A stretch of 64,000 nucleotides of DNA, taken from contig JACPHY010000015.1 of NCBI GenBank assembly GCA_016188355.1, forward strand, positions 1,040 through 65,039, written 5' to 3'. Positions 3,701 through 53,621 of the stretch are shown here, piece after piece. Both the position numbers and the translations under genes were made by a program. This DNA comes from Candidatus Uhrbacteria bacterium. GTDB taxonomy: Bacteria; Patescibacteriota; Patescibacteriia; JACPHY01. The first letter of the stretch is position 1. Every line of letters begins with the position of its first letter. The notes below the pieces were generated by a model, which saw nothing but the letters and a program-made list of their open reading frames with translations, made no database searches and had not been told where the DNA came from.

Positions 3701-3852
3701 AGCATTGGGGTGGAGGAAGGCGCCGCGGGTATTCCCCGCGCACCACAAAGCAGGCGTTCCGCCCGCACGTACGGGCTTGGAACGCTCAAATCAAGAGAAC
3801 CCATGGCTTCCAGAATAGATTCCTCCGGAAGACGCGTCAAGCAGTATCCAAA

Positions 3853-8426: not shown

Positions 8427-8443
8427 AGACGATCACTTTCGAG

Positions 8444-8526
8444 CCGCGGTGGTGGAATGGCAGACACGCATGGTTCAGGGCCATGTGCCCGCAAGGGCAT
8501 GGGGGTTCAAGTCCCCCCCGCGGCAA
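8444..8526 (+). tRNA. tRNA-Leu (anticodon CAG), long variable arm
   Basis: Hand fold: acceptor gccgcgg/ccgcggc, anticodon stem catgg/ccatg with loop ttCAGgg, long variable arm tgcccgcaagggca, T-arm ggggg-ttcaagt-ccccc, discriminator A, no encoded CCA. Confidence 0.85.
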
Positions 8527-8535
8527 AGACATCGT

Positions 8536-8690
8536 GGAGGAACCTCCCCCACTCCGCTCCTGAACGGAGCTTCGCGGGGCAAGCCGGTTTCCCTCCCGTG
8601 CCCCCTTCCCTCCAGACGGACGAAGCAACCCTACGGCCGCCTGCCCCGCGAAGCGCTGCGCGAAGTGGGGCTGCGCTCGGGCATCGGAAA
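8536..8690 (+). ncRNA. conserved structured tRNA-trailer element, copy 1 (see findings); unknown function
   Basis: The ~57-nt block aacctcccccactccgctcctgaacggagcttcgcggggcaagccggtttccctcc is near-identical (1 mismatch) to the reverse complement of 53467-53525. Distal block ctgccccgcgaagcgctgcgcgaagtggggctgcgctcggg is also conserved and base-pairs with gcttcgcggggca of block 1. Confidence 0.5.
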
Positions 8691-8822
8691 CCGAAAATTC
8701 GGACAGCAGACACCACGATTCCGTCTCATCTTTTAGATTTTCGAAACGCGCAATTTCCTTTTCATTTTCCATTCGACATTCTTTTTCTTCGCGCCGCTGC
8801 GTTTGTTGCGGATCCTCGATCT

Positions 8823-23539: not shown

Positions 23540-23953
23540 TCATACCGCACCCGTGCCCATCCACTGCCGATAGCGCCGCACGATCGAGTGCATCCAATCG
23601 GGAAACGCCGGATCATCGCCCCGTACCGGAACCCATCGATATTCCGTATGTTCTTCAGAAAGGATGATATCTGAGGACTGGGGATGACAGAGGAACACCA
23701 TCATCGTGATCACCTGACCGTCTTGGCGGGTGAAATGGTGAATCTCGAGTGGCAAGTCGATCGTCGCCGTGATGCCGATTTCCTCACGCATTTCACGCAC
23801 CAATCCTTCGTGGGGACTCTCCCCGAGCGAGAGGCGACCACCGGGAATATCCCACGCGCTCGGCTGATGCACATCATTCGGCCGACGCCGCAACAGCAAC
23901 ACCCGACCCTCATGCACCAACCATGCTTTCGCGGCATTTGCGGGAGGAATCAT
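23540..23953 (-). CDS. Nudix hydrolase
   Basis: Nudix box WDIPGGRLSLGESPHEGLVREMREEIGI (GX5EX7REUXEEXGU). Start taken at MIPPANAAKAWLVHEGRVLLL so that it overlaps the upstream gene by 4 nt. Confidence 0.8.
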   Translation of the reverse strand: MIPPANAAKAWLVHEGRVLLLRRRPNDVHQPSAWDIPGGRLSLGESPHEGLVREMREEIGITATIDLPLEIHHFTRQDGQVITMMVFLCHPQSSDIILSEEHTEYRWVPVRGDDPAFPDWMHSIVRRYRQWMGTGAV

Positions 23954-24783
23954 AGTTTTCCCTCCCGCTCCTGAACGGCGGCGATGCGCCGCACGAGATG
24001 CGGATGCGTGGACCACCACTCTGCCGCGCGGACCCAGTATCCGCGCTCCTCACGTGCTTGAGCAACCACCATCGCCGGGTCAATACGGGCGAAGAGCGTC
24101 TTTCCTGCTGCAAGCGCGAGCAATCCCGGGGTCGCTCCCGCGGGCACCAAGTATGCCCCGTACCGATCGCACGTGTACTCCGCCGCGCGCTGATATGCCG
24201 CACCAAGGAATGGAATGAGCAAACCCGGAAAGAGGAGTGCGCGCCAAACAAGGTGCTTCCGATGAATGTGCGCCAGCTCATGCGCGAGCACGAACGCGAC
24301 CGCATCGTTGCCTTGCGCATACGCCAACTCGAGGACATCGGAGAAAATGACGACGTATGTACTACGCAAAAACTTCGCCGCGAACGCATTCATCGATCCC
24401 CCTGCTTGCAACACGTACACCGCAGGCACCACACGAAATCCCATGCGGTGCGCGAGATCCACCGTCATCGCGTGCACTTCGGGCAACTGCTGCTCCGAGA
24501 TACGCAACGCATTGCCACGAATCATGCCCCAGAACATCCCGTGCGCATGCAGGAGAATAACCCCCCACACCAGTAACCAGAGCATACCCACAATACTAAC
24601 CACCAGCCCGATGTAGACCACTACACTCACGAGCACCAAGAGCACAAAATACACACGCTCCCGAGGATGCACGAGGGTACGGGGAAGCACAGGAGATGAA
24701 GCGACCATAAAAAGATGGCACCGAGATATCAACTCTGCCGACCATGTGATTGCAGGTATACTAGCACGAGATTCGTTGCCCAC
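23950..24783 (-). CDS. M48-family zinc metalloprotease (HtpX-like), membrane-bound
   Basis: Two N-terminal TM helices and HEXXH in AFVLAHELAHIHRKHLVW, with a downstream Glu ligand in AAEYTCDRYGAYL. The true start may be the internal Met at 24708. Confidence 0.8.
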   Translation of the reverse strand: MGNESRASIPAITWSAELISRCHLFMVASSPVLPRTLVHPRERVYFVLLVLVSVVVYIGLVVSIVGMLWLLVWGVILLHAHGMFWGMIRGNALRISEQQLPEVHAMTVDLAHRMGFRVVPAVYVLQAGGSMNAFAAKFLRSTYVVIFSDVLELAYAQGNDAVAFVLAHELAHIHRKHLVWRALLFPGLLIPFLGAAYQRAAEYTCDRYGAYLVPAGATPGLLALAAGKTLFARIDPAMVVAQAREERGYWVRAAEWWSTHPHLVRRIAAVQEREGKL

Positions 24784-24795
24784 CAGTTTCGTTTT

Positions 24796-26040
24796 ATGCG
24801 CTCAAAATTCTTCGCGTTCGCGGCGCTCATTGCGTGGTGCATGCCGCCCCTCGCACAGGCGTGCGCGATTGCGCCGTTTACTCCGCCGGAGGTTACCGTT
24901 CAACCCACCGGACACACCAATATTCTGGTGCGTTGGGACCACGGCGTCACGCAACAGGGAAATGTGGCGATTGCACCAAAATCTGGGCGCGAAACTCTGG
25001 TCATTGCACCCGAACTCCGCGGCAATGCTGCGGACTTTGGATTGGTATTTGGATTCCCCGCAAGACCGGAACTCAGTGAACCCCCCACAGAACTCTTCGC
25101 CACGCTCGCCACGATGACTCGACCATTGCCGCCACCCGTGCAATTTGGAGGATTGTTCGATGGCGCAACCGCGACCGCGCCTCCCAGCACCACTGCGCCC
25201 GAGGTGGCGGTCACAGAAGAACGAGTAATCGGCGATCTCCAGATCACCGTACTCACCGCAAAAAACGGCCGTGCGCTTGAGGAATGGCTGCGCGCACGTA
25301 CGTATGTGGTCGATGCGCAGGATCGAGCAAATATCGCGTACTACCTGAATCGCCGCAATCTCGAGCGCTTCTCGCGTGCTCCCGATCCTCACTTCGTCGC
25401 CATCCAGCTCACCGCGAAAGCACGCGCCGCCGCACAAAACGAACTCACCGATGATGAAATCGAACCCTCCGAGCAACCGCTCGCTCCGTATGATATCCGT
25501 CCAATCGGATTCACCTTTTCCACCAATATGCCGTTTCTCCCGATTCGATTTGCGGCAGACGGTGACCCAACCCAACCCGTGACCCTCTACACCATCAGTT
25601 CGTCGCCACTGATCATTCCCGGCGCAGGACTCGCGTTCCATGGACGCCTGGGCATGGAAGTCCGCGAACCCTCCCATGCGCTCGCCCGTCTCGCCCAACC
25701 CGGAGACCGTCTCCTCCGTTTGGAACTACGCATCGATCCGCGCCGAATCACGCGGGATCCTGAACTCGTTCCCCAATGGACCATCTCCAAGGAAATACGC
25801 CCGACTGTTGGCGATGCACTCCTCATTCTTGCGCCGGAATCCACGCCAATCGACGCAGGCATCGTGCGGCCTGCCCCAGGCGAGCTCCGCGCCATCGACG
25901 ACGCGCCGGCCATTGCTGATCCGCCACCACCACCCGCAGCGCCTCCAACATCCACACGTCATTGGCCATTTTTTGCCGCACAACAGATGCTGCGCCTCCC
26001 ACTCCTGCTCTTCTTCGCGGCGCCCTTTGTGGGCGAATAA
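24796..26040 (+). CDS. hypothetical secreted protein with C-terminal hydrophobic anchor
   Basis: Signal peptide MRSKFFAFAALIAWCMPPLAQA. Pro-rich C-terminus ending in the hydrophobic tail WPFFAAQQMLRLPLLLFFAAPFVGE. Confidence 0.5.
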   Translation: MRSKFFAFAALIAWCMPPLAQACAIAPFTPPEVTVQPTGHTNILVRWDHGVTQQGNVAIAPKSGRETLVIAPELRGNAADFGLVFGFPARPELSEPPTELFATLATMTRPLPPPVQFGGLFDGATATAPPSTTAPEVAVTEERVIGDLQITVLTAKNGRALEEWLRARTYVVDAQDRANIAYYLNRRNLERFSRAPDPHFVAIQLTAKARAAAQNELTDDEIEPSEQPLAPYDIRPIGFTFSTNMPFLPIRFAADGDPTQPVTLYTISSSPLIIPGAGLAFHGRLGMEVREPSHALARLAQPGDRLLRLELRIDPRRITRDPELVPQWTISKEIRPTVGDALLILAPESTPIDAGIVRPAPGELRAIDDAPAIADPPPPPAAPPTSTRHWPFFAAQQMLRLPLLLFFAAPFVGE

Positions 26041-29200: not shown

Positions 29201-31569
29201 TCGCACAATTCACTCCCAACAGCGTACCCACGATCACGTTGGGGGGTGACCGCATCTCACGGTTTACCGAATATACCGACGGCCGCGGGGCACTCATGAA
29301 ACAGTACGAAATTCCCAAGAGTCAAACCCCTGGCACCTACCCCATCACCGCAACCGACCAGAGCGGCGCCAAGGTGGCCGCATCGCTCGTGGTGAACGGC
29401 GTTGCCGCTCCCCCTACACTCACCATCGACCCCACGACCACCACATCAGCATCCTCCGTGGTGGTGCGTGGGAAAAACTGGGGCGATGGTCCATGGACGA
29501 TCACCATGCGCCTCGCGAACGGCAAAGGAAAAGAGTATCCGCTCCCGATCGATATCAATCTCTGTGCGAGAACAGTGAAAGCAGAGGAATGTCAGGACGG
29601 CGATCTGGCCGTGAAGGTCATTCTCCCCGAAGCACTAGAGCCGGGCACATACCGCGTGAACGTTGCGGGAACCACGGTGAGCAAGAGCGCGACACTCACC
29701 ATCATCGCGCAGGATATCCAAGAAGGAACGGAGGCCGCGATCGCCATCACGCCGACCACGGGCGCGCCGGGCACCTCCGTCATCATTAGCGGCACACGTT
29801 TCCAGCCCAATTCGAACGTCATCATCAAGTTTGATGAGCAGGTACTCCGCGCACAGCGCGGCGCCACGCGCACCGACGCACGCGGCGCATTCTCTGGCAT
29901 CACCGTCACCGTGCCCATCACCACCGCCGCAAAACACCAGATCACCGTACTCGACGGACAAGGGCATCGCACATCTACCGCATTCATCGTTGGCGCGATC
30001 AAGGAAGCCGATGGAGACGAAAAGAAAAAAGAGGAACAAAAGGAGACGCCATGCAATCCCGATCTCCCCTCGTTCTACGAGGGCGCATGCCCGAAGGGTA
30101 CGACTCCAGAGCAGAAAAAGGAGGAACCGAAAAAGGATGCGCCGTGCGATCCGAATCTTCCCTCCTGGTGGGCGGGCGCATGTCCAGCAAAATCAAACGC
30201 ACCAACGCCGGAACCCAAGAAGGAGACACCGCAACCAGAGACACCAAAATCCAACCCACCCTGCAACCCCGATCTCCCGTCATGGTGGGAAGGAGCATGC
30301 AAGCCATCCGAACCGTCTCCTCTTCCCGCGCCACAGCCACCCGTCGATACATCCAAATGTAATCCACTCGCTCCGAGCTACACACAACCGCCGGAATGTC
30401 GAAGCGCCGCGGCACCGACCTCGAACACCATCGCCGCAGGCGCTGCGCTCCTGAATCGCGTCGTAGAACCGCTCCTCGCGTTGTTCACGATGCCCACTTC
30501 CGCCGCAGCCGCAAAGGCACCCGCATTCACATCGAAATTCATGGCGGGATCGTACCGCTGCTGGAGCTACAACGTGAGCGGCGGGGGCGGCTCCTGCCGA
30601 CTTGCGCCGCCGCTCGAACTCAAGGCGAACGGAACGTACACCATGTCCAGTGAACGCGGGAGGTTCACCGTGCGCGGAAACCAACTCACCCTCTCGCAAT
30701 CCAAGCTCCGCGGCAAAGGGACGGTGAGCGAAGATGGCATGCGCATCCTGTTCGAGTATCCCTATAACGGATGGCAGCATACCGTCACCTATCTCCGCAG
30801 CACTCCACTCCCCGGGAGCGTGGCAGTGGAACTCACGATCCGATATCCCGAAGAACAGGGATGGCTCGACTGGGTTTCGACGGTGGCATTGGAGCCAACG
30901 AACGGCAGTGCCACGCGATACGATGGCGTCGCTACCGCACCGGATCGACGCACCATAAAAACCACGTACAACCGCGGCGTCATGGGCGGGCTAACCTACC
31001 GCGTGTTCGTCTCTACCGGAACGGACCGACAGGAGGTAGGGGTGCTCGATCTCCGGAAACAACGTGGCGGCAGCATCACGCGCACCATTGATGCACCGCT
31101 ACCGAAACCCACAGCTACCGAACCCGCTGATCCGCCCGTCGCCCCCATCATCGTTCCGATCGTTCCCGCCATGCCGACGACGCCCACCACTCCGGTCACG
31201 CCTCCCGCATCATCGGGAATACCGTGCGATCCCAATGTGCCCAAGTACTCGCAACCAGGCTGCGTCGATCCCGATGCTCCGGTGGTGAGCTCGCCGCCTC
31301 CGACCGCATCCCCCATCATCGAAACGCCGATCTTCGGCACACTCTCAGAGGGACCCACCTGGAATGCCCCTCCTCCCCCCGCGGACCCCACGCCCGCGTC
31401 GCCGCCCGCGTCATCGCCAAGCGCGCCGCCACGAAAAAACATCGGCGACCCATGGACGGATAGCTACGAAAACGAAGACACGCCCATACGCGAGTACTAC
31501 CGCACGCATCCCGGGGCAACCATGGGTCCGCCCCTCCTCCGCTATAACCTTCCCTCAGGGATTTTCTAA
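26233..31569 (+). CDS. giant secreted cell-surface protein (1778 aa): signal peptide, poly-Pro, Cys-rich N-domain, multiple IPT/TIG-like Ig-fold repeats, Pro/Lys/Glu stalk with Cys-bracketed CxPxLPxYWxGC repeats
   Basis: Signal peptide MLMSTPQTRWHRLAPLLVLCALALLPQSVSA and a Pro10 run. IPT/TIG-like segments such as ITVFGTNFPPDARITEVTIAGRG, TSVIISGTRFQPNSNVIIKFDEQVL and SSVVVRGKNWGDGPWTITMRLANGK. Repeats PCNPDLPSFYEGACP, PCDPNLPSWWAGACP, PCNPDLPSWWEGACKP, KCNPLAPSYTQPPEC, PCDPNVPKYSQPGC. Confidence 0.85.
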   Translation: MLMSTPQTRWHRLAPLLVLCALALLPQSVSAGWFDWLFPPPPPPPPPPALEVRCDDALRWTIPNVELGQYRTCPKAGEAYAGDILIIDAKHFPADSEAKPARIAKLYIYQNGQWPTRALTYGPTRTGNGNFRLMALVPSSLAPGNYTFILRVVDTCGTPCTRPIQYEGLCPSTECLQEHRDVFVQASFDLRIRDPKQEVRPPINPGNGPFDFTCSWTEKTWNAATEQFDTVKKSSKDTCPGGSSFSLNAGPFPRAYRDEMLKVYLRGPADAMGLCKDGAEGPTQYGHNGFCYFPQYTPFAGRTCDPMIVFQGPRCRQGKSDPMTCDGPNRPHSQTPTNCRIAVQHHLVAPPGTTYALVVRNSWASNPPTPDRWEVVGQSVLITEPITEPKQTYRGKQFTVTLDRDQLTFENPYGYPTLVPQYIRKGQLIPGARFQLPVRWDAPAGTTFPFFPRHKMQLVLDADSAGNGGTVLREGNAAEAKSGKTTTWENLQSPSDLQPGRHRLTIRCTNCDDQLTVGDPAIGNRPRPVFYVPTSVEVEVVDLAALPLPALRVQPTAVAPHGTITVFGTNFPPDARITEVTIAGRGGSATLGSTYRAPPYERFTFTVEGQRVTKEQPRIDVPVASDGRMALVIPLPPLAGDLVAGRGEVRVEVTVRDGATTFKKQTTFTIDASDCPLGAERPILSFGKERSDWMAPTVPVTTAAPLGYFQGQTAEIYGKHFACRSPITKVTATWKSGGNTYGPIALPLRKLEREEAAPFAVVGQEATNHDGTIGGSSGLALRPTGSLWWRNHLDVDHVLIAITDQSGRTSAPTRLELQSPPFRATPVTPSGVAAGERAAIRLSGFTSGHRIVIAPLPNEGLGNEPLEYAENLTWNTALGKRFAQLTKNFRLERNPDTVDYQIPSDLTTGVHTFAVVDTTEGEEARVDLSRLHHQLLRSRPRALFTMEIGGKKTAPDDQKDQKTDIPGKENLAITVAPTTAAPGTRITITLAQFTPNSVPTITLGGDRISRFTEYTDGRGALMKQYEIPKSQTPGTYPITATDQSGAKVAASLVVNGVAAPPTLTIDPTTTTSASSVVVRGKNWGDGPWTITMRLANGKGKEYPLPIDINLCARTVKAEECQDGDLAVKVILPEALEPGTYRVNVAGTTVSKSATLTIIAQDIQEGTEAAIAITPTTGAPGTSVIISGTRFQPNSNVIIKFDEQVLRAQRGATRTDARGAFSGITVTVPITTAAKHQITVLDGQGHRTSTAFIVGAIKEADGDEKKKEEQKETPCNPDLPSFYEGACPKGTTPEQKKEEPKKDAPCDPNLPSWWAGACPAKSNAPTPEPKKETPQPETPKSNPPCNPDLPSWWEGACKPSEPSPLPAPQPPVDTSKCNPLAPSYTQPPECRSAAAPTSNTIAAGAALLNRVVEPLLALFTMPTSAAAAKAPAFTSKFMAGSYRCWSYNVSGGGGSCRLAPPLELKANGTYTMSSERGRFTVRGNQLTLSQSKLRGKGTVSEDGMRILFEYPYNGWQHTVTYLRSTPLPGSVAVELTIRYPEEQGWLDWVSTVALEPTNGSATRYDGVATAPDRRTIKTTYNRGVMGGLTYRVFVSTGTDRQEVGVLDLRKQRGGSITRTIDAPLPKPTATEPADPPVAPIIVPIVPAMPTTPTTPVTPPASSGIPCDPNVPKYSQPGCVDPDAPVVSSPPPTASPIIETPIFGTLSEGPTWNAPPPPADPTPASPPASSPSAPPRKNIGDPWTDSYENEDTPIREYYRTHPGATMGPPLLRYNLPSGIF

Positions 31570-31578
31570 GCACGCGCT

Positions 31579-32196
31579 ATGGATGCAAAAAAGCCAATAA
31601 ACCCCATGAAGCTCTACCTCGGGGGCATGATGGGGGGGCTCGTGATCGCGCTCATCGTCATCCTCGTGGTCAATTCTCAGAAGACGCCCCCACCCACCAC
31701 TCCTCCCTCTGCTGCTCCCCCATCTGCTTCCGCATATGCCGCATGGGTCGCATTACCGGAAGATGCGCCCGTACGCGCAAAGCTCCCCGCGCAAGCAGTA
31801 GTAGAAACAGAGGTCCTGCCCATCGGAGAAAATCGGACTGCCACGCAGCGCCGCTACATCGCTTCCGATACGAACGAGCAGGTCTATTTTGTCACTACCC
31901 TTGAATACCCAGCGCCCATGAATCTCGAACAGCCGGAACCCGTACTCCGCGCCGGCCTCGACGGCATGGTGCGTGCCGTGCCATCGAACACACTCAAGGA
32001 GACGCGCTTCGGCTCCTTCCAGGGAATGCCCGCGCTCGACTTCACCATTGATGATCCCGCGGGTGCGCTGACGCATCGCGGCAAACTTTTTGCGCGAGAC
32101 CGAACGTTCTATCAGGTATTCGTGACGCACAATGCGGATAAATTTGATGCAACCGCGTACGAGTACTTCCTCTCCTCATTTGCGGCGCAACCGTAG
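31579..32196 (+). CDS. hypothetical membrane-anchored protein (N-terminal TM, Pro/Thr linker, globular domain)
   Basis: LYLGGMMGGLVIALIVILVV TM followed by a PPPTTPPSAAPPSASA linker; lies between the two giant genes. Confidence 0.55.
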   Translation: MDAKKPINPMKLYLGGMMGGLVIALIVILVVNSQKTPPPTTPPSAAPPSASAYAAWVALPEDAPVRAKLPAQAVVETEVLPIGENRTATQRRYIASDTNEQVYFVTTLEYPAPMNLEQPEPVLRAGLDGMVRAVPSNTLKETRFGSFQGMPALDFTIDDPAGALTHRGKLFARDRTFYQVFVTHNADKFDATAYEYFLSSFAAQP

Positions 32197-32205
32197 TGGA
32201 TCTCT

Positions 32206-35200
32206 ATGACACCTCACGCATCGGTACGTCGCTCGCTCGCGCGACACGCGCTCATCGCGCTCGCGATGGGAGCGCTCCTCGTTCCCGCGCCCACGCTCGC
32301 CGCAGAACGACTCCTCGCGCGACCCAGTTCGGAACTCATGGACACTCCTCAACGGAGGCCGCGCGTGTCCCCCGAAACGATCCTGCAACGACAAGCCGTC
32401 CAAGCGCTCCGTACGGTGTTTGCTCCGGAAATCAAACAGTACGCCGGACTTGATGCCTGGCTCACCGATCGCGCCCATCCACCACTCCCCCGTGCTATTG
32501 CCGATCTCCAGGCGATCCGCGCAACCAATCCGAGTGCCGGCCTCACCGAACTCACCGGGAACATCCGCGGCAATCGCAACGTGTATCTCCAGTACATGGG
32601 TATCCAGGCGTGGATCGATCAATACGCACCACCCATCATCACGAGCATCGCCCCCGATGCCGTGATCGCTGGCGATCGCGTCACGATCCGAGGAGATCGA
32701 TTTTCGGATATCAAGGGATTGCAATTTGGCACTCGACCACTTCCCACACAAGATTACATTGTCGTTTCGCCGCAAGAACTCATCGTGGAAATTCCGGAAA
32801 CGAATTCCCGATACGGTCCATATGCAATCGCATTCACGATCCGCACTGCCCACGGCACCACCACCTCTTCCAGCATCACCCAATGGACCGGCACATGCAC
32901 CGATGCACGCATCGGACGTGCATTCACCGAGCTCCTCAACACGAAACCCCGAGGCGACAAGACGCAAGGACAATGCGACCCCGCTCCGTACGGCGCGTAT
33001 ACGTCATATACGGATCTCCTCATCAAGGTAGCCCAACGACACGGATACACGAAACGCGATGCGCCCGTCATCACGGAAATCGCTCCCGGGGTAGGTAATC
33101 CTGGAGACCGCATCACCATTCGCGGTCGCAATCTCTACCAACTCACGGATGTCCTGTTCGGAAATCACCGCGCAGCATTCACCTCACTCTCCGCCGACGA
33201 AATTACCGCCACCGCACCCGGGGAAGGCGCCGGTGTTATCACCATCATCACTAAATCCGGATCCGCAAGCTCCCCACAAGCGTTCGCGTTCCATCCCATT
33301 CCCAAGATCACCGCTACCACGCCCGCGGAAGTCATGTTCACTGATCAACCGCTCACGTTATTCGGTGAACATCTCGGCGAGGACACTGCGAACACCGAAG
33401 TGCGCATTGGCAACGTGCGCTACCCCGTCGAAACCACGCGCGGTGCGGGTGAGGTGATCATCCGCCCGAACCAGCCGGCACAAAACGCCATCATCACGGT
33501 TCGGCGCAATGGCCGACAATCAGAATTCCGATCCGGCATCGACATTTGGACCGGCAAATGCCGCGATCCATGGATCACGCAAGCATTTCAGGACCTCTTT
33601 GGGCGTCCCCCATGGGGGCAGGACGATCTCGGCCAATGCGATTACCGAAAATATCGCAATGGCAAGTGGAATAATTACGAGGAGCTCAAATTCGGCGTAC
33701 GCCAAGTGTACGGATACGGCACCGGCGCCGCGCCCACGATCACCCGCGTCGACCCCCCATCACCCGTTGCAGGAACGCGTGTCACCATCCACGGAACGGG
33801 ATTCACCAATCTCCAGTCGGTTATTTTTGGGAGCAATGCCGCGCAGGATGTCGTACTGCAATCGAATACCGCGATTGCCGCCACCGTTCCCTACGGTGCC
33901 GGGAGTGGCGATGTGGTCGTGGGCACCCTCTTCGGGGTCGCACGTCTGGCCTATACCGTGCAATATCCCCCCGTCGTCAGTCGCATCGAGCCGGTGAATC
34001 CCCGACCAGGAACGACGATCACCCTCTTCGGCTCCCATCTCGACGTCGTGGATACGGTGATGATCGGATCCGCCACAAGCACGATCCGCGAGCAATCGAC
34101 AACCAAACTCGTCGTCGAGGTGCCGCGCGACCTTGCGGGCAAGCACCGCGTCACCGCGAAATCGCCGCGGGGAGACTCTGCATGGCCCGCAGACATTGAT
34201 ATTGCCGTCGTGAAAAACCTCCTCGGCGAGGAAGAATACTGCTTCCCGGGGGTCGGCAAACAATGCCTGGGAAGCGGCGACGAATGGGAATGGCATGGGC
34301 TCGGATCGCAAAAGATCCTCAAGCCCATCGGCTGCTCGAAGGAGGATACCATCACCCTTGATGGAGAAACGTTTGCTGCGCGGTCCTGTTGGGTGGTCCC
34401 TGGTAGCATCAAGCACGATAACTGCTGCCTGCAGCATCCTTCAGGAAAAAATTGCGGAGGACCAGGGAAGAATCCATTCAATAAGGACGAGCCGGATCGC
34501 GATTGGATCTCGGGCAAAGTGAATCCTGCAGGCGAATTCAACCACGACGGCACCTGCGTCCAGGAATGGGATGATGCATTCTGGGATGTGGCCTGGGGTC
34601 GCGCGTGGCCTGCCTTGTTCCGGTCACAAGTACCGGCAAATATCAGCCCCGCCCCCAGTCCACATAACCGGTACCCCAAGGGCGAAGTGGTTGATTCTGC
34701 ATCCGCGTGCGCTCCGGATGGCACCTATCTCACCGCGAAGCATGGCGCAGGATTCTGTTGCTCCGGGAAATTCGAGAAGGACACCGCATACTACGTGCTC
34801 GGCGTGGAGCCATGGGCACGATGCGGGAACGGTCTCGGGAGCATCGTGAAAAATTTGAAAGCAGATCTCGCGATCACGGGCCTGGACCTGAGCACCGCGC
34901 CGCCGTCACCGAACGATCTCCTCCAAACGACGCGCATGCCCACACCGTCCCCAATCACCACCAGTAATCCGCTCGCCACGGGCATCGTGGGCAATTTCAC
35001 GCAGCCCGTACCGGGACCAAGCGCCATCACCACCTCCAATCCCTTCTCGGTACCTGCAGGCCGATCGAGTCGAGGCGTCCAAGGAATCACCCCCGGTACC
35101 ATTGAGCAGGGCGGCGTCATCGCTCCTCCCGCACCCACCAGTCCCCCCACACCCATCCCGACGACGCTGGACGTAACCACCAAGTACTGCAATCCGGAGC

Positions 35201-36363
35201 TTCCGAAGTATTGGCAGCCAGGGTGCACGGAACGGCCAGCCAACGCGCCGCCGGAGGTCAAATACTGCGACCCTACTCTGCCCCGCATTTGGCAGCAGGG
35301 ATGCGTCGCGCGCGGCTCCGCTACGGATCCCGTACTGCAACCGACCACGCCAACACCCGCGCCCCCGGGACGCGAACTCACCCCCGCAAACACCACCGGG
35401 CCCGTACCCGCCGCACCGTCCACTCCGCCCATTCCCCCGCCGAGCGCTGCTGCCCCAAGCGTGCAGTACTGCGATCCCGAACTCCCGAAGTATTGGCAGC
35501 AGGGATGCGTCGAGCCGACCACGGCACCCACACCAATTCCCGCCGCACCCACTCCAGCCGCATCGCGCTGTGATCCGGCGGTGCCCATGTACATGCAGCG
35601 CGGCTGCACGGAGGCAACGCTGCCACCCGAGCAACGCATAACGCACGCCCCATCCTCGCCTTCGCTCGCCAGTAGGTTGCTCCAACCACTCGTTGCTGCG
35701 CTCCTCGCCCCCACTCCCATCACCGCCGCGGAGCCGCCCGCAATCACGCCCCCGGACCAAACAAAATCTACCGCGACCATCACCGTCGCACCCAAAACCG
35801 CACGTCCCGGTCGCCGACTCCTCGTGCAGGGAGAAGGATTCACACCGGAACTTCGCATCGCGGTAGCCATTGATGGCAAGTTCGAACCGGAAATTGAGGA
35901 GGAAACCGAGGAGGACGGATCATTCGATTGGGCCTACGTCATCCCGCGCACCATGGCCAATGGCCCACACGAATTGCTCGTAGTGGATCGCAATGGCGTC
36001 AAGGCGAGAACCAGCTTCACGGTCTTTGGCTCTGCCGTTCGCGCCCGACGAACACCACCGCCAACCACCAACCCATCGCCCAGCGTGCCGCCGACGATTT
36101 CCGTTCCCGTCGCCCCCGCCACGCCGACGGATCGCCGATGCGTGCCGCTCATTCCCCGCCTCTGGCAGCCCGGATGCATCGAAGAATCGGCGCCATCTGC
36201 ACCGCTCCCCTTTGCGGGGAAGTCATGCGACATGAATATTCCGATCACGTTCCAACCCGGCTGCATCGAACCGGAACGCCCGCTCCCCGCACTCTCGGAT
36301 ATGACCGGAAAACCATGCGATCCCCGCGTACCCAAATACACCCAGCGCGGATGCGTGGAGTAG
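32206..36363 (+). CDS. giant secreted cell-surface protein (1385 aa): five IPT/TIG domains, duplicated W-T-G-x-C...G-Q-C-D module, Cys-rich domain, Pro-rich stalk with seven CxPxLPxYWQxGC repeats
   Basis: Signal peptide MTPHASVRRSLARHALIALAMGALLVPAPTLAA. IPT repeats PIITSIAPDAVIAGDRVTIRGDRF, PVITEIAPGVGNPGDRITIRGRNL, PTITRVDPPSPVAGTRVTIHGTGF, PVVSRIEPVNPRPGTTITLFGSHL. Repeats YCNPELPKYWQPGC, YCDPTLPRIWQQGC, YCDPELPKYWQQGC, RCDPAVPMYMQRGC, RCVPLIPRLWQPGC, SCDMNIPITFQPGC, PCDPRVPKYTQRGC. Confidence 0.85.
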   Translation: MTPHASVRRSLARHALIALAMGALLVPAPTLAAERLLARPSSELMDTPQRRPRVSPETILQRQAVQALRTVFAPEIKQYAGLDAWLTDRAHPPLPRAIADLQAIRATNPSAGLTELTGNIRGNRNVYLQYMGIQAWIDQYAPPIITSIAPDAVIAGDRVTIRGDRFSDIKGLQFGTRPLPTQDYIVVSPQELIVEIPETNSRYGPYAIAFTIRTAHGTTTSSSITQWTGTCTDARIGRAFTELLNTKPRGDKTQGQCDPAPYGAYTSYTDLLIKVAQRHGYTKRDAPVITEIAPGVGNPGDRITIRGRNLYQLTDVLFGNHRAAFTSLSADEITATAPGEGAGVITIITKSGSASSPQAFAFHPIPKITATTPAEVMFTDQPLTLFGEHLGEDTANTEVRIGNVRYPVETTRGAGEVIIRPNQPAQNAIITVRRNGRQSEFRSGIDIWTGKCRDPWITQAFQDLFGRPPWGQDDLGQCDYRKYRNGKWNNYEELKFGVRQVYGYGTGAAPTITRVDPPSPVAGTRVTIHGTGFTNLQSVIFGSNAAQDVVLQSNTAIAATVPYGAGSGDVVVGTLFGVARLAYTVQYPPVVSRIEPVNPRPGTTITLFGSHLDVVDTVMIGSATSTIREQSTTKLVVEVPRDLAGKHRVTAKSPRGDSAWPADIDIAVVKNLLGEEEYCFPGVGKQCLGSGDEWEWHGLGSQKILKPIGCSKEDTITLDGETFAARSCWVVPGSIKHDNCCLQHPSGKNCGGPGKNPFNKDEPDRDWISGKVNPAGEFNHDGTCVQEWDDAFWDVAWGRAWPALFRSQVPANISPAPSPHNRYPKGEVVDSASACAPDGTYLTAKHGAGFCCSGKFEKDTAYYVLGVEPWARCGNGLGSIVKNLKADLAITGLDLSTAPPSPNDLLQTTRMPTPSPITTSNPLATGIVGNFTQPVPGPSAITTSNPFSVPAGRSSRGVQGITPGTIEQGGVIAPPAPTSPPTPIPTTLDVTTKYCNPELPKYWQPGCTERPANAPPEVKYCDPTLPRIWQQGCVARGSATDPVLQPTTPTPAPPGRELTPANTTGPVPAAPSTPPIPPPSAAAPSVQYCDPELPKYWQQGCVEPTTAPTPIPAAPTPAASRCDPAVPMYMQRGCTEATLPPEQRITHAPSSPSLASRLLQPLVAALLAPTPITAAEPPAITPPDQTKSTATITVAPKTARPGRRLLVQGEGFTPELRIAVAIDGKFEPEIEEETEEDGSFDWAYVIPRTMANGPHELLVVDRNGVKARTSFTVFGSAVRARRTPPPTTNPSPSVPPTISVPVAPATPTDRRCVPLIPRLWQPGCIEESAPSAPLPFAGKSCDMNIPITFQPGCIEPERPLPALSDMTGKPCDPRVPKYTQRGCVE

Positions 36364-36510: not shown

Positions 36511-37674
36511 ATGCGCCTTGCGCTCGTCCACGACCATCTCAATCAAATCGGCGGCGCGGAACGAGTCCTCCTCACGCTCACGGACGTGTACCCGAAAGCG
36601 CCGATCTACACCCTGCTCTACGATCCGCACGCGATCGCGGATTTCTTCCGTGGGTGCGATATTCGTACCTCCTTCATCGAACGTCTCCCGGGAGGACGGC
36701 GTTGGTTCAAATGGTTCCTCCCCCTCATGCCCACGGCATTCGAGACCTTTGATCTGACCCGGTACGATGTCATCCTCTCCTCATCTTCCGCGCTCTCCAA
36801 AGGGGTCATTGCACACCCCCACCAGCTCCACATTTGCTACTGCCACACGCCCACGCGGTATCTCTGGAGCGATACACACGAGTACCTGGAGAAGCTGCCC
36901 CAACGCGGCACGGCACGACTCCTCCTCCCCATGCTCCTCACCCGGCTGCGGATGTGGGATTACCAATCCGCGCAACGAGTGGATCGCTTCATCGCGAACT
37001 CGCGCTGGGTCGCTGGACGCATCCGAAAATACTATGGGCGCCCCGCGGATGTGATCTATCCACCCGTTGATACCCGATACTTCGTTCCGAGTAGCGGTGA
37101 AGGCGGATACTACTGCATCGTCTCCCGCTTACGGCCGTACAAGAAAGTCGATATTGCCATTGCCGCATGCAATCGACTCCAGTTGCCCTTGGTCATTGCA
37201 GGAAGCGGCGAAGACGAAGCACGACTCCGCGCCATGGCAGGGCCCACCATCGCGTTCCGCGGACAGGTGAGCGAGCGCGAAAAACGCGACCTCCTCCAAA
37301 ACGCGCTCGCCTTCATTCATCCGCAGGAGGAGGATTTTGGCATCACGGCGGTTGAAGCGATGGCCGCAGGACGCCCGGTGATCGCGTTCCGCCGCGGCGG
37401 TGCAATGGAAACCATCATCGAAAACGAAACGGGCATCTTTTTCGATGAGCAGTCCTGGGAAGGTCTCGCCGACGCCCTCCTCCGCTTCCGCGGCCACGCA
37501 CGTCACTGGGATCCGAAACACATTCACCGCCACGCCGAGCAATTCGACACGAGCGTGTTCCGGGATAAAATTACCCAATACGTGCGCAATGCGCGGAAGG
37601 AATTCCAAGACACCACCGCCGCCACTCCGCCCGCAGCTCCATCCGCCTCATCCCCACAAGCAACGGGAAATTGA
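36511..37674 (+). CDS. glycosyltransferase family 4 (GT-B, retaining)
   Basis: MRLALVHDHLNQIGGAERVLLTL N-terminus and C-terminal EDFGITAVEAMAAGRPVIAFRRGGAMETI (GT4 E-x7-E region). Confidence 0.85.
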   Translation: MRLALVHDHLNQIGGAERVLLTLTDVYPKAPIYTLLYDPHAIADFFRGCDIRTSFIERLPGGRRWFKWFLPLMPTAFETFDLTRYDVILSSSSALSKGVIAHPHQLHICYCHTPTRYLWSDTHEYLEKLPQRGTARLLLPMLLTRLRMWDYQSAQRVDRFIANSRWVAGRIRKYYGRPADVIYPPVDTRYFVPSSGEGGYYCIVSRLRPYKKVDIAIAACNRLQLPLVIAGSGEDEARLRAMAGPTIAFRGQVSEREKRDLLQNALAFIHPQEEDFGITAVEAMAAGRPVIAFRRGGAMETIIENETGIFFDEQSWEGLADALLRFRGHARHWDPKHIHRHAEQFDTSVFRDKITQYVRNARKEFQDTTAATPPAAPSASSPQATGN

Positions 37675-37709: not shown

Positions 37710-38120
37710 ATGATGGACGCGGAAACAAAAAAATTCATCGAGGAGCAGACCGAGATCATCCTCCGCGTCACGAAGGAGGGATTTGATGCTGTGGATGAAC
37801 GATTTCGAGGAGTCGACGGTCGACTCGATGGCATCGATCATCGACTCGATGCGCTGGACCTCCGCTTGCAAACTATCGAATCCGATATTGCGGACCTCAA
37901 ACAACGCATGTCACGGGTAGAGCAAGAGGTAATCACCCTCGGCGCGCAAATGGTCACGAAGCAGTACCTCGATGCAAAAATTGATGCACTCCTCTCGCAG
38001 CCGCCCATCAACAAAGTCGACGGCGTCCGAAAGGCGGTGCTTGCCGTGCTCCTCCACCTCGAACGCGCGAAGCTCTTACCGAGCGAAGAACGCGCGACAC
38101 TCGAAATGCTCCTCATGTGA
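37710..38120 (+). CDS. small coiled-coil protein with D-x-R-[FL] heptad repeats (paralog of 421..801)
   Basis: MMDAETKKFIEEQTEIILRVTKEGFDAVDERFRGVDGRLDGIDHRLDALDLRLQTIESDIADLKQRM...; same architecture and heptad motif as the ORF at 421..801 (minus strand). Confidence 0.5.
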   Translation: MMDAETKKFIEEQTEIILRVTKEGFDAVDERFRGVDGRLDGIDHRLDALDLRLQTIESDIADLKQRMSRVEQEVITLGAQMVTKQYLDAKIDALLSQPPINKVDGVRKAVLAVLLHLERAKLLPSEERATLEMLLM

Positions 38121-39241
38121 GTCGCATTCTCTTTGATGGTCGGAGTCTCCAATCGCCCCCGCCCCGCGGGGGCGTCGGTGTCGTGGCGGAGCAGCTCCTG
38201 CAGCATCTCCTCGCCGGAGACACCGCGAACGAGTATCTCCTCTTCGTCAACGGCATGGGGAATTTCGCTGGACATCTTCCCGTCCTCACCGCTCCGCATG
38301 CGCGCTGGATGCGGACGTACTGGCCCAACAAATGCTGGAACGCCGCCGCAAGGTGCGGATTGCCGGTCCTGCGCCCTCCGGAGGTCGATGTCGTGTTCCT
38401 CCCGAACCTCAATTTCCTTCCCCCACTCCACCGGTGCACCAAGCTCGTGGTCATGGTCCACGACCTGAGTTTTGTCCATTTCCCTGATTGCTTCACCCCA
38501 AAGCAACGCCTCTGGCATCACGCGATACGACCGCGCACCCTCCTCCAGCGCGCCAACGCCATTGTTGCGGTTTCTCACACGACTGCGCGGGATATTGTGG
38601 ATACGTACGGCATCCCCACATCGCGCGTCCACGTGATTCCTCCCGGCATCACCCATTGCGCACCCACAGAATCACCCCACGCACTCCGTTCGCGATATGC
38701 GCTACCCGTGAAATTCATCCTTACGCTTTCCGCATGGGAGCCACGAAAAAATTTGGACGGCCTCATTGCGGCATTCGAACAATGCGCCACGCACCCCGAA
38801 CTCCAGGATACGCATTTGATCATTGCGGGCATTCCAGGCAGCGCGACCCGCACCATACGTCGCCTCGCCGATCATTCCGCGATGCGCAATCGTATCCGTT
38901 TCCTCTCCGCGATTCCGGACCACGAAAAGCACGCGCTCTATGCGCTTGCCACTTGCTTCGCCTATCCCAGCATCTGGGAGGGATTCGGCATCCCCCCCCT
39001 CGAAGCCATGGCCGCCGGAACGCCGGTCGTCGCGTCCACTGGCGGATCGCTTCCGGAAATCCTCGGCAATGCCGCACTCCTCGTAGATCCGCTCGACCCC
39101 GGCGCCATTGCGCGCGCAATCGTGCATGCATGCACCGACCACCATCTCCGTGCGGAGATCATCGCACAGGGTCGCGCACGCGCACAGCGCTATTCCTGGA
39201 TCACCGCTGCTCAACAACTCCACCACCTCCTCATCGCATGA
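38117..39241 (+). CDS. glycosyltransferase family 4
   Basis: Start overlaps the upstream stop (atgtga). C-terminal [38 protein letters not shown]. Confidence 0.85.
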
Positions 39242-40749: not shown

Positions 40750-41652
40750 TCACCACATCCACACCCGATGCCGTATCGCTGCTCGCCAGATATGCCATCG
40801 GCGACGCAACAGATAGCACGGCCATTTCGCAAAGAACAGCACGGGATCGCGCCCACCGTGCGTCACGTAGCGGACGATCAGGAGCGGGAGCAGGAATGGA
40901 AATCCGAGCAGCGGGAGATAATCCTCCGCGTTGACGACGTGCCGCCATCGGATCGGCGGACGGAACTCCGATGTAAAGATTTCGTTTCCATACCGCGCAG
41001 CGAGGAGCGGCCATACGCTCGCATTGCGCGACTGCGCTGCGAGCGTTGCGGGAGTCCAGAACGATTCCGCATGGATCGCGACCGCACCCGATGCAGGAAC
41101 CAGCCGTCCCACACGAGCCAATCGATAGGCGATCTCCGTGTCTTCGTTGTGATACCGACCAAATTGCGAATCGAATCCACCAACGGCACGGAGCGCCGCC
41201 GCGCGATAGGCGATACACCCCGCGCCCGGCCACGTCGGGCCGAGGTTCTGGACGATGCGTTCGGGAAATCGACCCCGATACCCCGGGGCACGGTAGATCA
41301 CTGAACCGTACGCAGCCACAACCTCCGGATCCCCGCAGGATGCGACGAGCGCAGCGAGCCAGCCCGACTGCACCACGCAATCATCATCGGTAAACGCAAG
41401 CACCTCGCCCTGGGCCTGCGCGAGCGCCGAGTTCCGCGCTGCGCTGACTCCCTGATTTTGTGCATGGCGTACGACGTGCAGCTTTGGGTGCATGCGTTGC
41501 AATTCCTGGCAATATGCTGCAGTGTCGTCCGTCGAACCGTCATCAATCACCAGGAACTCGTTCGCTCCTGCCGCATGCCGCAAAATCGACGCCAAGCACT
41601 GTTCAAGCAATGCGCGCCGATTATACGTACAGATGGCGACGGTGACCGTCAT
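40750..41652 (-). CDS. glycosyltransferase family 2
   Basis: MTVTVAICTYNRRALLEQCLASILRHAAGANEFLVIDDGSTDDTAAYC...FTDDDCVVQSGW (GT-A with DxD-type motifs). Confidence 0.85.
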   Translation of the reverse strand: MTVTVAICTYNRRALLEQCLASILRHAAGANEFLVIDDGSTDDTAAYCQELQRMHPKLHVVRHAQNQGVSAARNSALAQAQGEVLAFTDDDCVVQSGWLAALVASCGDPEVVAAYGSVIYRAPGYRGRFPERIVQNLGPTWPGAGCIAYRAAALRAVGGFDSQFGRYHNEDTEIAYRLARVGRLVPASGAVAIHAESFWTPATLAAQSRNASVWPLLAARYGNEIFTSEFRPPIRWRHVVNAEDYLPLLGFPFLLPLLIVRYVTHGGRDPVLFFAKWPCYLLRRRWHIWRAAIRHRVWMW

Positions 41653-41992
41653 AGGAACACATGGAACCATTGCTGCGCTTCTATCGTATCCCCTTTCGTA
41701 GGAAGCACACGGATATTTCGTTCGTCATTTCGACCACGGTGAGCACTACTCTATGCCCGTCACCATCCGCAAAAAAGGCAGCAAGTACGAGGTTCGTACC
41801 CCGCAGGGCGTTAAAGCGAAGGGGACGACCAGGGCCAAGGCGGAAGCGCAAAGGCGTCTCCTGAAAGGCATCGAGAGCGGCAAGTGGCGACCAACGGGGA
41901 AACCCAGACGGAAACGAACGACCCGCGCATGAGCATACATGATGCGTCCACCAACGAAACGACGGCCACCCGGTTGGGTGACCGTCTCCTGA

Positions 41993-42958: not shown

Positions 42959-44113
42959 ATGCGCATCGGGATCGACGCACGACTCTACGGGGTGGCCAGC
43001 GGAACGGGTATTGGTCGATATACGGAAGAACTCGTGCACGCACTCGGTGCCATGCCAATAGAAACAGCGGACCTCGAATTTGTCGTCTTCCTCCGTCGGG
43101 ATGCATTCGCAACTTTTGCGCCGCCGAACACGCGGTGGTCGAAGGTACTCGCCGAGTTTCGGCCGTATACCCTGACTGCGCAGACACAATTCCCGCGCGT
43201 GCTTGCCGATGCGCGCGTGGATCTCATGCATTTTACGCACTTTGATCACCCGCTCGCGTATCGTGGGCCATTCCTCACGACCATCCACGACACCATCCTC
43301 CTCGACCACCCCACTACCCGCGCCTCGACGCTCGGCCCCATCAAATTCTGGACGAAATACCTCGCATATCGCTCGGTCATCCGTGACGCCGTCCGTCGCA
43401 GCATGCGCGTCCTCACCCCATCCCGCGCGGTCAAAGATGACCTCGTGCGGCGATTCCGCGTACTCCCGGAACAGGTCATCGCCGCGCATCTTGGGGTGAA
43501 CCACGCTGCACCCCCTCCTCCATCAGCGCAGCAGAATCGAACAGCAGCGGACGCGCCACCACTCCCCAATCGCCCATTCGTGCTCTACGTCGGTAATGCG
43601 TACCCACACAAGAATCTCGCATGGCTCGTTCGCGTATGGCCGAATATCGCCGAGGCTGAGGATGGTCTTCTCTTGGTGCTCGTGGGGCGAGAAGACGATT
43701 TCTACCACACACTCCGCACCCATGTGGATACTCGAACACCAATCGTGTTCATGGGGCCATGCGGTGATGAAGCACTACAGTGGCTCTATCAACACGCGAC
43801 CGCATACGTGAGCCCGAGTCTTGCGGAGGGATTCGATCTCCCCACGCTCGAGGCCGCAGCAAAAGGAATTCCCGTAGTTGCGACAAAAATACCCGTGCAC
43901 ACGGAAATACTCGGCGACGGTGCGCACTTCTTTCCCCCGGGGGACGGAGAAGCACTGCACCATGCCATACGCGAACTCCGAACCCATCACGAACTCCGTG
44001 ATATACTGATACGTCACGGGCGTGCGCGCGCGCAGCAATACTCCTGGTCCTCCTGCGCAACGGAAACACTGCGCGCGTATCGCGAGGCGCTCGCCCTCCG
44101 TTTCCCGTCCTAA
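42959..44113 (+). CDS. glycosyltransferase family 4
   Basis: MRIGIDARLYGVASGTGIGRY N-terminus and EGFDLPTLEAAAKGIPVVATKIPVHTEILGDGAHFF C-terminal motif. Confidence 0.85.
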   Translation: MRIGIDARLYGVASGTGIGRYTEELVHALGAMPIETADLEFVVFLRRDAFATFAPPNTRWSKVLAEFRPYTLTAQTQFPRVLADARVDLMHFTHFDHPLAYRGPFLTTIHDTILLDHPTTRASTLGPIKFWTKYLAYRSVIRDAVRRSMRVLTPSRAVKDDLVRRFRVLPEQVIAAHLGVNHAAPPPPSAQQNRTAADAPPLPNRPFVLYVGNAYPHKNLAWLVRVWPNIAEAEDGLLLVLVGREDDFYHTLRTHVDTRTPIVFMGPCGDEALQWLYQHATAYVSPSLAEGFDLPTLEAAAKGIPVVATKIPVHTEILGDGAHFFPPGDGEALHHAIRELRTHHELRDILIRHGRARAQQYSWSSCATETLRAYREALALRFPS

Positions 44114-44119
44114 TACCCC

Positions 44120-53546: not shown

Positions 53547-53621
53547 TGCGCCCAGCAGGATTTGAACCTGCGGCCTTGTGCTCCGGAGGCACACGCTCTA
53601 TCCAGGCTGAGCTATGGGCGC
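53547..53621 (-). tRNA. tRNA-Arg (anticodon CCG)
   Basis: Minus-strand sequence GCGCCCATAGCTCAGCCTGGATAGAGCGTGTGCCTCCGGAGCACAAGGCCGCAGGTTCAAATCCTGCTGGGCGCA. Acceptor GCGCCCA/TGGGCGC, anticodon stem TGTGC/GCACA with loop CTCCGGA, T-arm GCAGG-TTCAAAT-CCTGC. Confidence 0.85.

Follow-up and report, generated by a model that had tools for sequence, protein, structure and literature searches.

A C-terminal Cys-loop repeat and its partner domain in secreted proteins of Candidatus Uhrbacteria and other bacteria

Two giant proteins and their twelve Cys loops

In a 64 kb window on a 66-kb contig of a Candidatus Uhrbacteria metagenome-assembled genome (MAG), two giant open reading frames (ORFs) on the forward strand encode secreted proteins, here named P1 and P2, and both products carry copies of a short loop repeat bracketed by two cysteines. 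P1 is built, in order, of a signal peptide, immunoglobulin (Ig)-like/TIG domains, four Cys loops, a hydrophobic element, a region that we call domain X, one further Cys loop and a C-terminal extension. P2 consists of a signal peptide, TIG domains, a Cys-rich domain, four loops, a hydrophobic element, an Ig-like domain and three loops that lead up to the stop codon. The positions of all features are collected in Table 1.

The original prediction, made from the DNA of this window, described twelve copies of the repeat. When the ORF translations were searched with a Cys-bracketed pattern, all 12 were found in frame, five in P1 and seven in P2, and the positions differ from those first reported only by the flanking residues that had been added. 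Residue shuffling (2000 shuffles per protein) gave a mean expectation of 0.0045 copies in P1 and 0.0075 in P2, compared to the 5 and 7 observed, and the strict pattern occurred nowhere outside P1 and P2 in a six-frame translation of the 64 kb window. The copies were also said to be diverged, and DNA identity among the 39-nt motif copies indeed ranges from 44 to 82% with a median of 56%. Thus, they appear to be old, diverged copies kept by selection rather than recent duplications.

In order to place the proteins among described families, Pfam-A and NCBIfam were searched with full-length P1 and P2, which returned just IPT/TIG and other Ig-like models, all in the N-terminal parts. The isolated stalk and tail segments gave nothing over the loops at E<=10 in either database, so the motif lies outside named domains, as had been proposed. 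P2 also matches the NCBIfam 'choice-of-anchor Z' repeat domain, a name that hints at combination with alternative C-terminal anchors. Across 8 million full-text papers, motif strings such as YSQPGC and WQPGC occurred only in two unrelated lipase peptides, and keyword searches of the literature on surface proteins of the Candidate Phyla Radiation (CPR) returned nothing relevant. The Cys-rich globular domain of P2 contains 14 Cys, has no Pfam match and is kept at 32-37% identity in five members of the family described below (P0031, P0028, P0043, P0034 and P0044). Given this conservation, it may be another undescribed extracellular domain.

Table 1. Positions of the features of P1, P2, protein Y and neighbouring genes in the 64 kb window
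Feature	Position (nt)	Strand	Description
P1	26233..31569	+	1778 aa, secreted; NCBI MBI2483316.1 'hypothetical protein', Candidatus Uhrbacteria
P1 internal loop block	30052..30399	+	three S-[FW]-[WY]-x-G-A-C units and one terminal-type C-x12-C unit
P1 S-[FW]-[WY]-x-G-A-C units, Cys to Cys	30052-30090, 30145-30183, 30262-30300	+	
P1 terminal-type C-x12-C unit	30358-30399	+	CNPLAPSYTQPPEC
P1 hydrophobic element	30430..30513	+	IAAGAALLNRVVEPLLALFTMPTSAAAA; junction of two modules
Domain X inside P1	30535..31152	+	aa ~1435-1640; predicted barrel GSYRCWSYNVSGGGGSCR ... FEYPYNGWQHTVTYLR, then predicted Ig/CBM-like beta-sandwich
P1 last loop	31225..31263	+	CDPNVPKYSQPGC; terminal subtype
P1 C-terminal extension	31264..31566	+	101 aa past the last loop; …LSEGPTW…PRKNIGDPWTDSYENEDTPIREYY…LLRYNLPSGIF
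P2	32206..36363	+	1385 aa, secreted; NCBI MBI2483318.1 'IPT/TIG domain-containing protein'
P2 Cys-rich globular domain	34231-34830		aa ~676-875
P2 internal loop block	35188..35607	+	three W-type units and one terminal-like unit
P2 W-type units, Cys to Cys	35188-35226, 35266-35304, 35470-35508	+	
P2 terminal-like unit	35569-35607	+	CDPAVPMYMQRGC
P2 hydrophobic element	35662..35730	+	SLASRLLQPLVAALLAPTPITAA; resembles the P1 element
P2 Ig-like domain of the second, putatively fused module	35758..36075	+	
P2 C-terminal three-unit module	36139..36354	+	29/30-aa spacing; followed by VE and the stop codon
P2 C-terminal module, unit 1	36139-36177	+	CVPLIPRLWQPGC
P2 C-terminal module, unit 2	36226-36264	+	CDMNIPITFQPGC; ITFQPGC subtype; CDMNIP variant
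P2 C-terminal module, unit 3	36316-36354	+	CDPRVPKYTQRGC; terminal subtype; 2 residues ahead of the stop codon
Protein Y	31579..32196	+	205 aa, N-terminal transmembrane anchor, no Pfam match; between P1 and P2
Initiating sugar transferase	19432-20817		
M48 peptidase	23950-24783	-	
DUF2330 protein	24715-26040	+	signal peptide and C-terminal hydrophobic segment; directly upstream of P1
GT4	36511-37674		
GT4	38117-39241		
GT2	40750-41670	-	
DUF4012 protein	44022-47063		

The repeat family and its C-terminal position

To define the family to which the repeat belongs, we searched 1.84 billion cluster representatives with HMMER, using a 19-position profile of the motif copies. The search identified 67 proteins at E<=1e-3, 44 of them at E<=1e-10, and the Cys-loop family is real but rare. 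The earlier view of a selected mini-domain is supported. Word-indexed homology searches are weak for a repeat with low-complexity flanks (one match for a P2 C-terminal query, two for a three-unit profile), and the family was brought to light by the exhaustive profile search and by DNA-pattern scans. About 17 chance matches of a single-unit W-Q genome pattern, which were single copies in short ORFs, were discarded after translation.

In 65 family proteins we located 211 units. Both Cys are invariant and the spacing between them is exactly 11 residues in 211/211 units, within the consensus G-K-P-C-[DN]-P-[ND]-[LIV]-P-[RK]-Y-[WAS]-Q-P-G-C-[VI]-[EDP], to which a linker is added. Between the Cys, Q+9 is present in 201/211 units, P+5 in 193/211, G+11 in 191/211 and P+2 in 165/211. 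The consensus put forward by the original prediction needs three corrections: the first three P1 copies lack Gln+9 and Gly+11, the aromatic pair is not invariant, and the conserved unit is longer than 13 aa, including G-K-P ahead of the first Cys and [VI]-[EDP] behind the second. Additionally, the distance from one unit start to the next has its mode at 29 aa and falls within 28-31 aa in 83/146 intervals, indicating a true unit of ~29 aa that is composed of a 13-aa loop and a Pro-rich or charged linker of ~16 aa. The linkers are rich in Pro/Thr or Lys/Glu and variable in length, and the number of units per protein ranges from 1 to 8.

The repeat normally stands at the end of the chain. Exactly two residues lie beyond the last Cys in 37/65 proteins and no more than four in 52/65, which makes the module a C-terminal tail. 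In these 52 proteins the post-Cys tails, such as IP, VP, VE and VEQ, are without a hydrophobic segment. Additionally, the last unit is specialised: of 53 terminal units, 49 carry Tyr at +7 and 44 carry Ser/Ala at +8, while Trp or Phe occupies +8 in 91/158 internal units. The terminal subtype follows the consensus C-[DN]-P-N-[VI]-P-x-Y-[SA]-Q-P-G-C, with the chain stopping 2-3 residues later. Two further subtypes are the I-T-F-Q-P-G-C unit, to which CDMNIPITFQPGC of P2 belongs, and S-[WF]-[WYF]-x-G-A-C, which is specific to P1 and its Uhrbacteria homologs.

Loop tails are found on varied secreted proteins. A simple pattern check recognised a signal-peptide-like N-terminus in 40 Met-initiated family sequences. 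The passenger domains include TIG (8), alpha/beta hydrolase (2), ricin lectin (2) and InlB B-repeat (2), with none recognisable in most proteins, and single-loop tails are also found on small proteins such as the 168-aa protein of locus L028. Named carriers include several Uhrbacteria, one Gallionellaceae MAG with a contig of >130 kb, and Beta-, Delta- and Gammaproteobacteria MAGs, and many carriers are groundwater and iron-oxidiser MAGs. Locus L016 adjoins a gene for a CHASE-PAS-GAF-GGDEF-EAL signalling protein, which confirms a genuine non-CPR carrier. Thus, the motif is not private to the stalks of two paralogues, as had been thought, but is instead an extreme C-terminal repeat of a family that spans several phyla. 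A scan of 55 members found no shared family over the tail, and hidden Markov models (HMMs) for SLH, CWB1, CWB2, LysM and WxL matched neither P1, P2 and their isolated segments nor the scanned family members. In one Uhrbacteria locus (L026, 1706-3810) the loop-tailed gene is split over two overlapping frames, 1706-3190 and 3025-3810, suggesting a frameshift or a MAG assembly error; the NCBI protein MBI2483818.1 (226 aa) spans just the tail of this gene.

To analyze the structure of the loops, the three-unit tail of P2 was modelled by AlphaFold2 (AF2) from a 12-sequence alignment. In two independent AF2 models, DSSP assigned a beta-bridge to the residues flanking both Cys in 4/4 modelled units, and each modelled unit contains a three-residue helical turn at +6..+8. 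The P1 loop, which lies within the independent model of domain X, displays the same pattern of bridge and turn as the P2 tail model. The models thus bring the Cys-flanking ends of each loop together, as would be expected of an intra-unit disulfide, and so agree with the disulfide-stapled loop of the original prediction. Cys counts after residue 35 are even in 28/38 signal-peptide-like members, and P1 and P2 have 32 and 30 Cys, consistent with full disulfide pairing. Each unit is probably a disulfide-closed loop. The three-unit profile had no match among PDB sequences at E<=10, nor did a Foldseek search of the PDB with the loop-module model, the confidence of which is moderate, at the same threshold.

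The loops in the middle of P1 and P2 may be explained by the architecture of these proteins. Long sequence beyond a loop block was found in P1, its homologs P0015, P0012 and P0040, and P2, and the arrangement is common to all of them. The internal W-type block ends in a terminal-type unit (CNPLAPSYTQPPEC in P1, CDPAVPMYMQRGC in P2) and is followed by a hydrophobic element and then by a second module made of a globular domain and one or more terminal-type loops. From this order we infer that P1 and P2 are end-to-end fusions of two tail-bearing family proteins, which would account both for loops in mid-protein, described at first as a stalk, and for domain X inside P1. An assembly artefact can be dismissed, since other Uhrbacteria have the same arrangement at 44-45% identity.

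The hydrophobic element at the junction has the pattern S-L-L-x-R-φ-φ-[EDQ]-P-φ-φ-x-φ-L…P-T…A-A and is present in P1, P2, P0015 and P0040, and more loosely in P0012. It is signal-peptide-like, with an A-A motif past the hydrophobic core, yet has conserved charged residues and Pro. It may be a relict signal peptide of the second protein, a polyprotein processing site or an amphipathic helix. We judged a transmembrane helix unlikely given the conserved Arg, Glu/Gln and Pro inside the element; in addition, a single transmembrane segment would put domain X in the cytoplasm, while stand-alone X proteins are exported. The C-terminal extension of P1 has no family match. Both P0015 and P0012 conserve two of its short motifs, L-[SP]-E-G-P-[TS]-W and PRKN-x-GD-x-W-x-D-[ST]-YENEDTPIR…LLRYNLPSG, the former of which is present in P0067 as well.

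Domain X and the surrounding genes

The original prediction overlooked a conserved partner of the repeat, namely domain X, the globular part of P1 that separates the stalk from the last copy. When the family loci were compared all against all, homologs of this domain proved to be separate signal-peptide proteins encoded beside loop-tailed genes, with 33-58% identity and E values of 1e-14 to 1e-40. Linkage was assayed on loci picked solely by the loop motif. An X gene was adjacent on the same strand, or fused, in 6/9 genome contigs picked by the loop motif and in 11/15 metagenome contigs picked by the terminal-unit pattern, or 17/24 contigs in both sets, and several of the loci lacking X are short or cut by a contig edge. 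Intergenic gaps between loop-tailed and X genes are 15-33 nt, a stop/start overlap of 4 nt occurs in L051 and L053, and either gene may come first. The linkage is asymmetric: loop-tailed genes are almost always beside X, and X also stands alone.

X also occurs fused to other parts. It bears a terminal loop of its own in P1 of the window, P0074, P0078, L046 and L048, and four proteobacterial loci (L016, L045 on a Gallionellaceae contig, L053 and P0079) encode an X protein with a PDZ domain fused to its C-terminal end. The CPR forms have a hydrophobic N-terminal anchor followed by a linker of 30-50 aa. All forms of X begin with a C-x11-C loop of their own around an invariant GGGG. Most non-CPR forms, both short (~120 aa) and long, have an extra C-x-x-C (…TYLCQ-x-C…) right past the barrel, its carriers including P0080-P0093, L045 and L053; the CPR forms, P1 of the window among them, are without it.

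Domain X had no relatives in Pfam, NCBIfam or among PDB sequences. Its N-terminal subdomain was modelled as a lipocalin-like 8-stranded barrel and its C-terminal subdomain as Ig-like. The fold neighbours of the predicted barrel are metalloprotease inhibitors (6iy4, 1smp, potempin), HslJ (2kts) and the lipocalin-like 4qrl, and those of the C-terminal subdomain are Ig/CBM-like sandwiches. Among the neighbours of the models these are binding folds, and no enzyme-like neighbour stands out. Because X contains invariant Cys, His and Arg, a sortase-like enzyme, a beta-barrel fold with a Cys-His-Arg catalytic triad, was also considered but was rejected on the fold neighbours, sortases being absent from the top 60 matches.

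A motif of ~45 aa, R-L-A-G-[KR]-I-[VL]-L-Q-V-[EQ]-x-x-G-[EK]-A-W-Y-[VI]-N-P…L-G-[RK]-P-x-D-A-F-x-V-M-R-x-L-G-L-G-I, is repeated in several Uhrbacteria secreted proteins (L012, 2337-3092 and 5788-7131; L026, 2-400). The domain X protein of L026 carries it N-terminally, and it also occurs in a protein whose C-terminal part looks, by eye, like a trypsin-like serine protease.

Protein Y, encoded between P1 and P2, has homologs that adjoin domain X genes in L039 (835-1431, 41% identity) and L038 (5084-5461, opposite strand, 30%) and may be a third component in CPR bacteria. The Cys-loop repeat and domain X are two new sequence families, with protein Y a possible third, that Pfam and NCBIfam have missed.

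P1, Y and P2 are set within an envelope-glycan locus. The context given by the original prediction was borne out, as both giant proteins have a signal peptide together with Ig/TIG domains and stand beside a glycosylation locus; from this context the original prediction suggested a putative adhesion or S-layer-like role. In the related Uhrbacteria locus L033, a four-loop protein comes after X, and two GT4 genes and the gene of a PDZ protein lie downstream. The DUF2330 protein of the window was not found beside the family in the other loci compared. In the annotated neighbourhoods, which give local context only, no sortase- or exosortase-like gene appears and no secretion-system gene is consistently linked. 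Elsewhere in the window are a tRNA-Leu(CAG) at 8443-8525, which overlaps the beginning of an automatically listed ORF (8457-10670), and a tRNA-Arg(CCG) at 53547-53621.

A proposed docking role, its alternatives and known systems

To our knowledge, the attachment of large surface proteins in CPR/Patescibacteria is poorly understood, and in the loci inspected we found no classical anchor signal on loop-tailed proteins and no sortase-like gene nearby. Rather than mere stalk decoration, the motif is the unit of a repeat that makes up a rare tail module of several phyla, and this module has a conserved, likewise undescribed partner gene. The repeat, its C-terminal position, the terminal unit and the linkage to X across phyla suggest a docking tag for domain X, and we class the repeat as a putative C-terminal tethering or docking repeat, and tail and domain X may form a surface tethering pair. 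The tail, recognisable by its ~29-aa units and diagnostic last unit, and its co-encoded candidate receptor would offer a handle to predict displayed proteins, and likewise to find display machinery or to engineer display or pull-downs. Since the same pair is present in Gallionellaceae and other Proteobacteria, the module is either ancient or horizontally transferred and is not bound to one envelope type.

In the mechanism that we propose, each unit would be a 13-residue disulfide-closed loop that presents the conserved face P-x-x-P-[RK]-Y/φ-[W/S/A]-Q-P-G and has a Pro-rich/charged linker of ~16 residues behind it. Sec-exported proteins with varied passengers would end in a tail of one to eight such units, the specialised last unit closing the tail. 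The exported, co-operonic domain X would be functionally coupled to this tail and would recognise it, so that passenger proteins are tethered or assembled at the cell envelope in a manner resembling dockerin and cohesin. X would be membrane-anchored in CPR and sometimes PDZ-bearing, PDZ being a C-terminus-binding fold, in Proteobacteria, and X proteins with a tail of their own could chain. We favour recognition of the tail by X tentatively, as a reading with a fair number of points on its side and yet short of an even chance. That tail and X make up a two-component surface-display/assembly system of CPR and Proteobacteria, with a loop tag, a barrel receptor and chains of self-tailed receptors, is a more doubtful proposition; if true, it would constitute a new envelope-anchoring class, independent of sortases, exosortases, SLH domains and dockerins.

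Several observations weigh against this mechanism. Confidence in the loop-module model is moderate, with a mean predicted local distance difference test score (pLDDT) of 67; the loops reach 70-80 and the linkers about 60. In loci found via domain X, loops are adjacent or in cis in 2/8 and none are nearby in 6/8. The C-terminal extension of P1 is kept in homologs P0015 and P0012, an exception to the rule that the chain ends after the last Cys. Family C-termini (…GC-[VI]-[PE]) are unlike classical hydrophobic PDZ ligands, an X protein that bears the tail itself could be just another passenger, and in diderm carriers the proteins would still need a route to the surface.

The tail can also be explained without docking. 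As a passive spacer, stapled loops would stiffen a Pro-rich stalk, protect it from proteases and space the passengers, X being an unrelated co-operonic passenger. Pro/Thr- or Lys/Glu-rich linkers of varying length, a copy number of 1 to 8, loops between the globular parts of the window proteins and X proteins that bear the tail, as any passenger would, all fit such a role. However, a spacer needs neither near-invariant surface residues across phyla (R/K+6, Y+7, Q+9) nor a specialised last unit, and in the 52/65 proteins in which the tail closes the chain, no further part follows that could be spaced. A single loop at the end of a small protein (168 aa, L028) cannot serve as a stalk and the X pairing in 17/24 contigs is left unexplained, so we regard a spacer as unlikely. 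Even less probable is that the repeat binds a non-protein ligand, such as a cell-wall glycan, an exopolysaccharide or a mineral, via its aromatic residue, Gln and Arg, in the manner of CWB2, SLH and choline-binding repeats. Such binding is consistent with the conserved aromatic, Gln and basic residues in each loop, with tandem C-terminal repeats as in known wall-binding modules, with the glycan biosynthesis genes that are neighbours both in the window and at L033, and with the groundwater and iron-oxidiser origin of many carriers. Nonetheless, CPR and diderm Proteobacteria have no obvious common envelope polymer, no known carbohydrate- or wall-binding family matches, and binding of this kind does not predict the conserved pairing with domain X.

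To an export, folding or processing tag, for which X would serve as chaperone, quality-control factor or processing adaptor and the hydrophobic elements as polyprotein cleavage sites, we assign the same low probability as to ligand binding. PDZ domains of HtrA/Ctp-type envelope proteases recognise C-termini, which suits a tag of this kind; the PDZ part of the L016 X protein matched DegP/HtrA-type models of NCBIfam below the threshold, and L045 and L053 contain PDZ fusions too. The asymmetric linkage fits as well, with loop genes almost always beside X and X often alone, as do the signal-peptide-like hydrophobic elements with their A-A motif after the hydrophobic core and the M48 peptidase upstream in the window. 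Set against these, domain X has neither the fold nor a motif of a protease or foldase, the annotated neighbourhoods show no consistent link to a secretion-system or sortase-like gene, and the conserved charges and Pro of the hydrophobic element are atypical for a cleavable signal. Lastly, the loops could be canonical protease-inhibitor loops in tandem, Bowman-Birk or SFTI-like, being short, disulfide-closed in prediction and Pro-containing with a basic residue, and the fold neighbours of the X barrel include the metalloprotease inhibitors 6iy4_I, 1smp_I and 8ehc_B. A Bowman-Birk/SFTI loop is a nine-residue disulfide-closed C-T-[KR/other P1]-S-x-P-P-x-C. Here, 11 residues lie between the Cys and the sequence is C-[DN]-P-[ND]-φ-P-[RK]-Y-x-Q-P-G-C, which makes an inhibitor highly improbable.

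Among known proteins, BAD-1 of Blastomyces provides a structural parallel, with tandem repeats that form tight, one-disulfide loops with conserved Trp/aromatics and are reported to be heparin-binding modules (PMC3708853). Both have tandem disulfide-constrained loops displaying aromatics, the disulfide being a prediction in the Cys-loop repeat. BAD-1 is fungal and has 17-aa loops with a WxxWxxW motif in 41 copies, and it lacks both a specialised terminal unit and a partner gene. The two are not similar in sequence, the Cys loops having 11 residues between the Cys and a P-x-x-P…Q-P-G core.

CWB2 (PMC4973711), SLH and choline-binding repeats are tandem repeats that tether diverse passengers to the wall of monoderms non-covalently. 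The Cys-loop module resembles them in that tandem repeats would tether diverse secreted passengers. In contrast to these wall repeats, which are longer folded domains that bind polymers of the wall and occur in monoderms only, the Cys-loop module has no HMM match, is also found in Proteobacteria and is paired with a gene for a protein partner.

In LPXTG/sortase, PEP-CTERM/exosortase and related signals, a short motif precedes a transmembrane helix and a basic tail, and a dedicated transpeptidase cuts the signal off. Like them, the loop tail is a conserved C-terminal signature on otherwise unrelated secreted proteins. Unlike them, Cys-loop chains end 2-3 residues past the last Cys without a hydrophobic helix, and with a post-Cys tail of 1-4 residues in 52/65 proteins the module does not belong to these sorting signals.

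The closest analogy to the proposed role is that of dockerin and cohesin. Dockerins (type I/II) are modules of ~70 aa with two 22-aa Ca-binding loop-helix repeats (Pfam PF00404). The Cys-loop module, with no Pfam match and a 13-aa Cys-bracketed loop as its unit, is not a dockerin, and the two systems have no relationship in sequence, Ca binding or fold. The likeness is instead one of organisation: in both, a short repeated C-terminal module is carried by varied catalytic or binding passengers, fused forms occur, and a separate beta-sandwich or barrel partner, sometimes anchored to membrane or wall, is the proposed surface holder.

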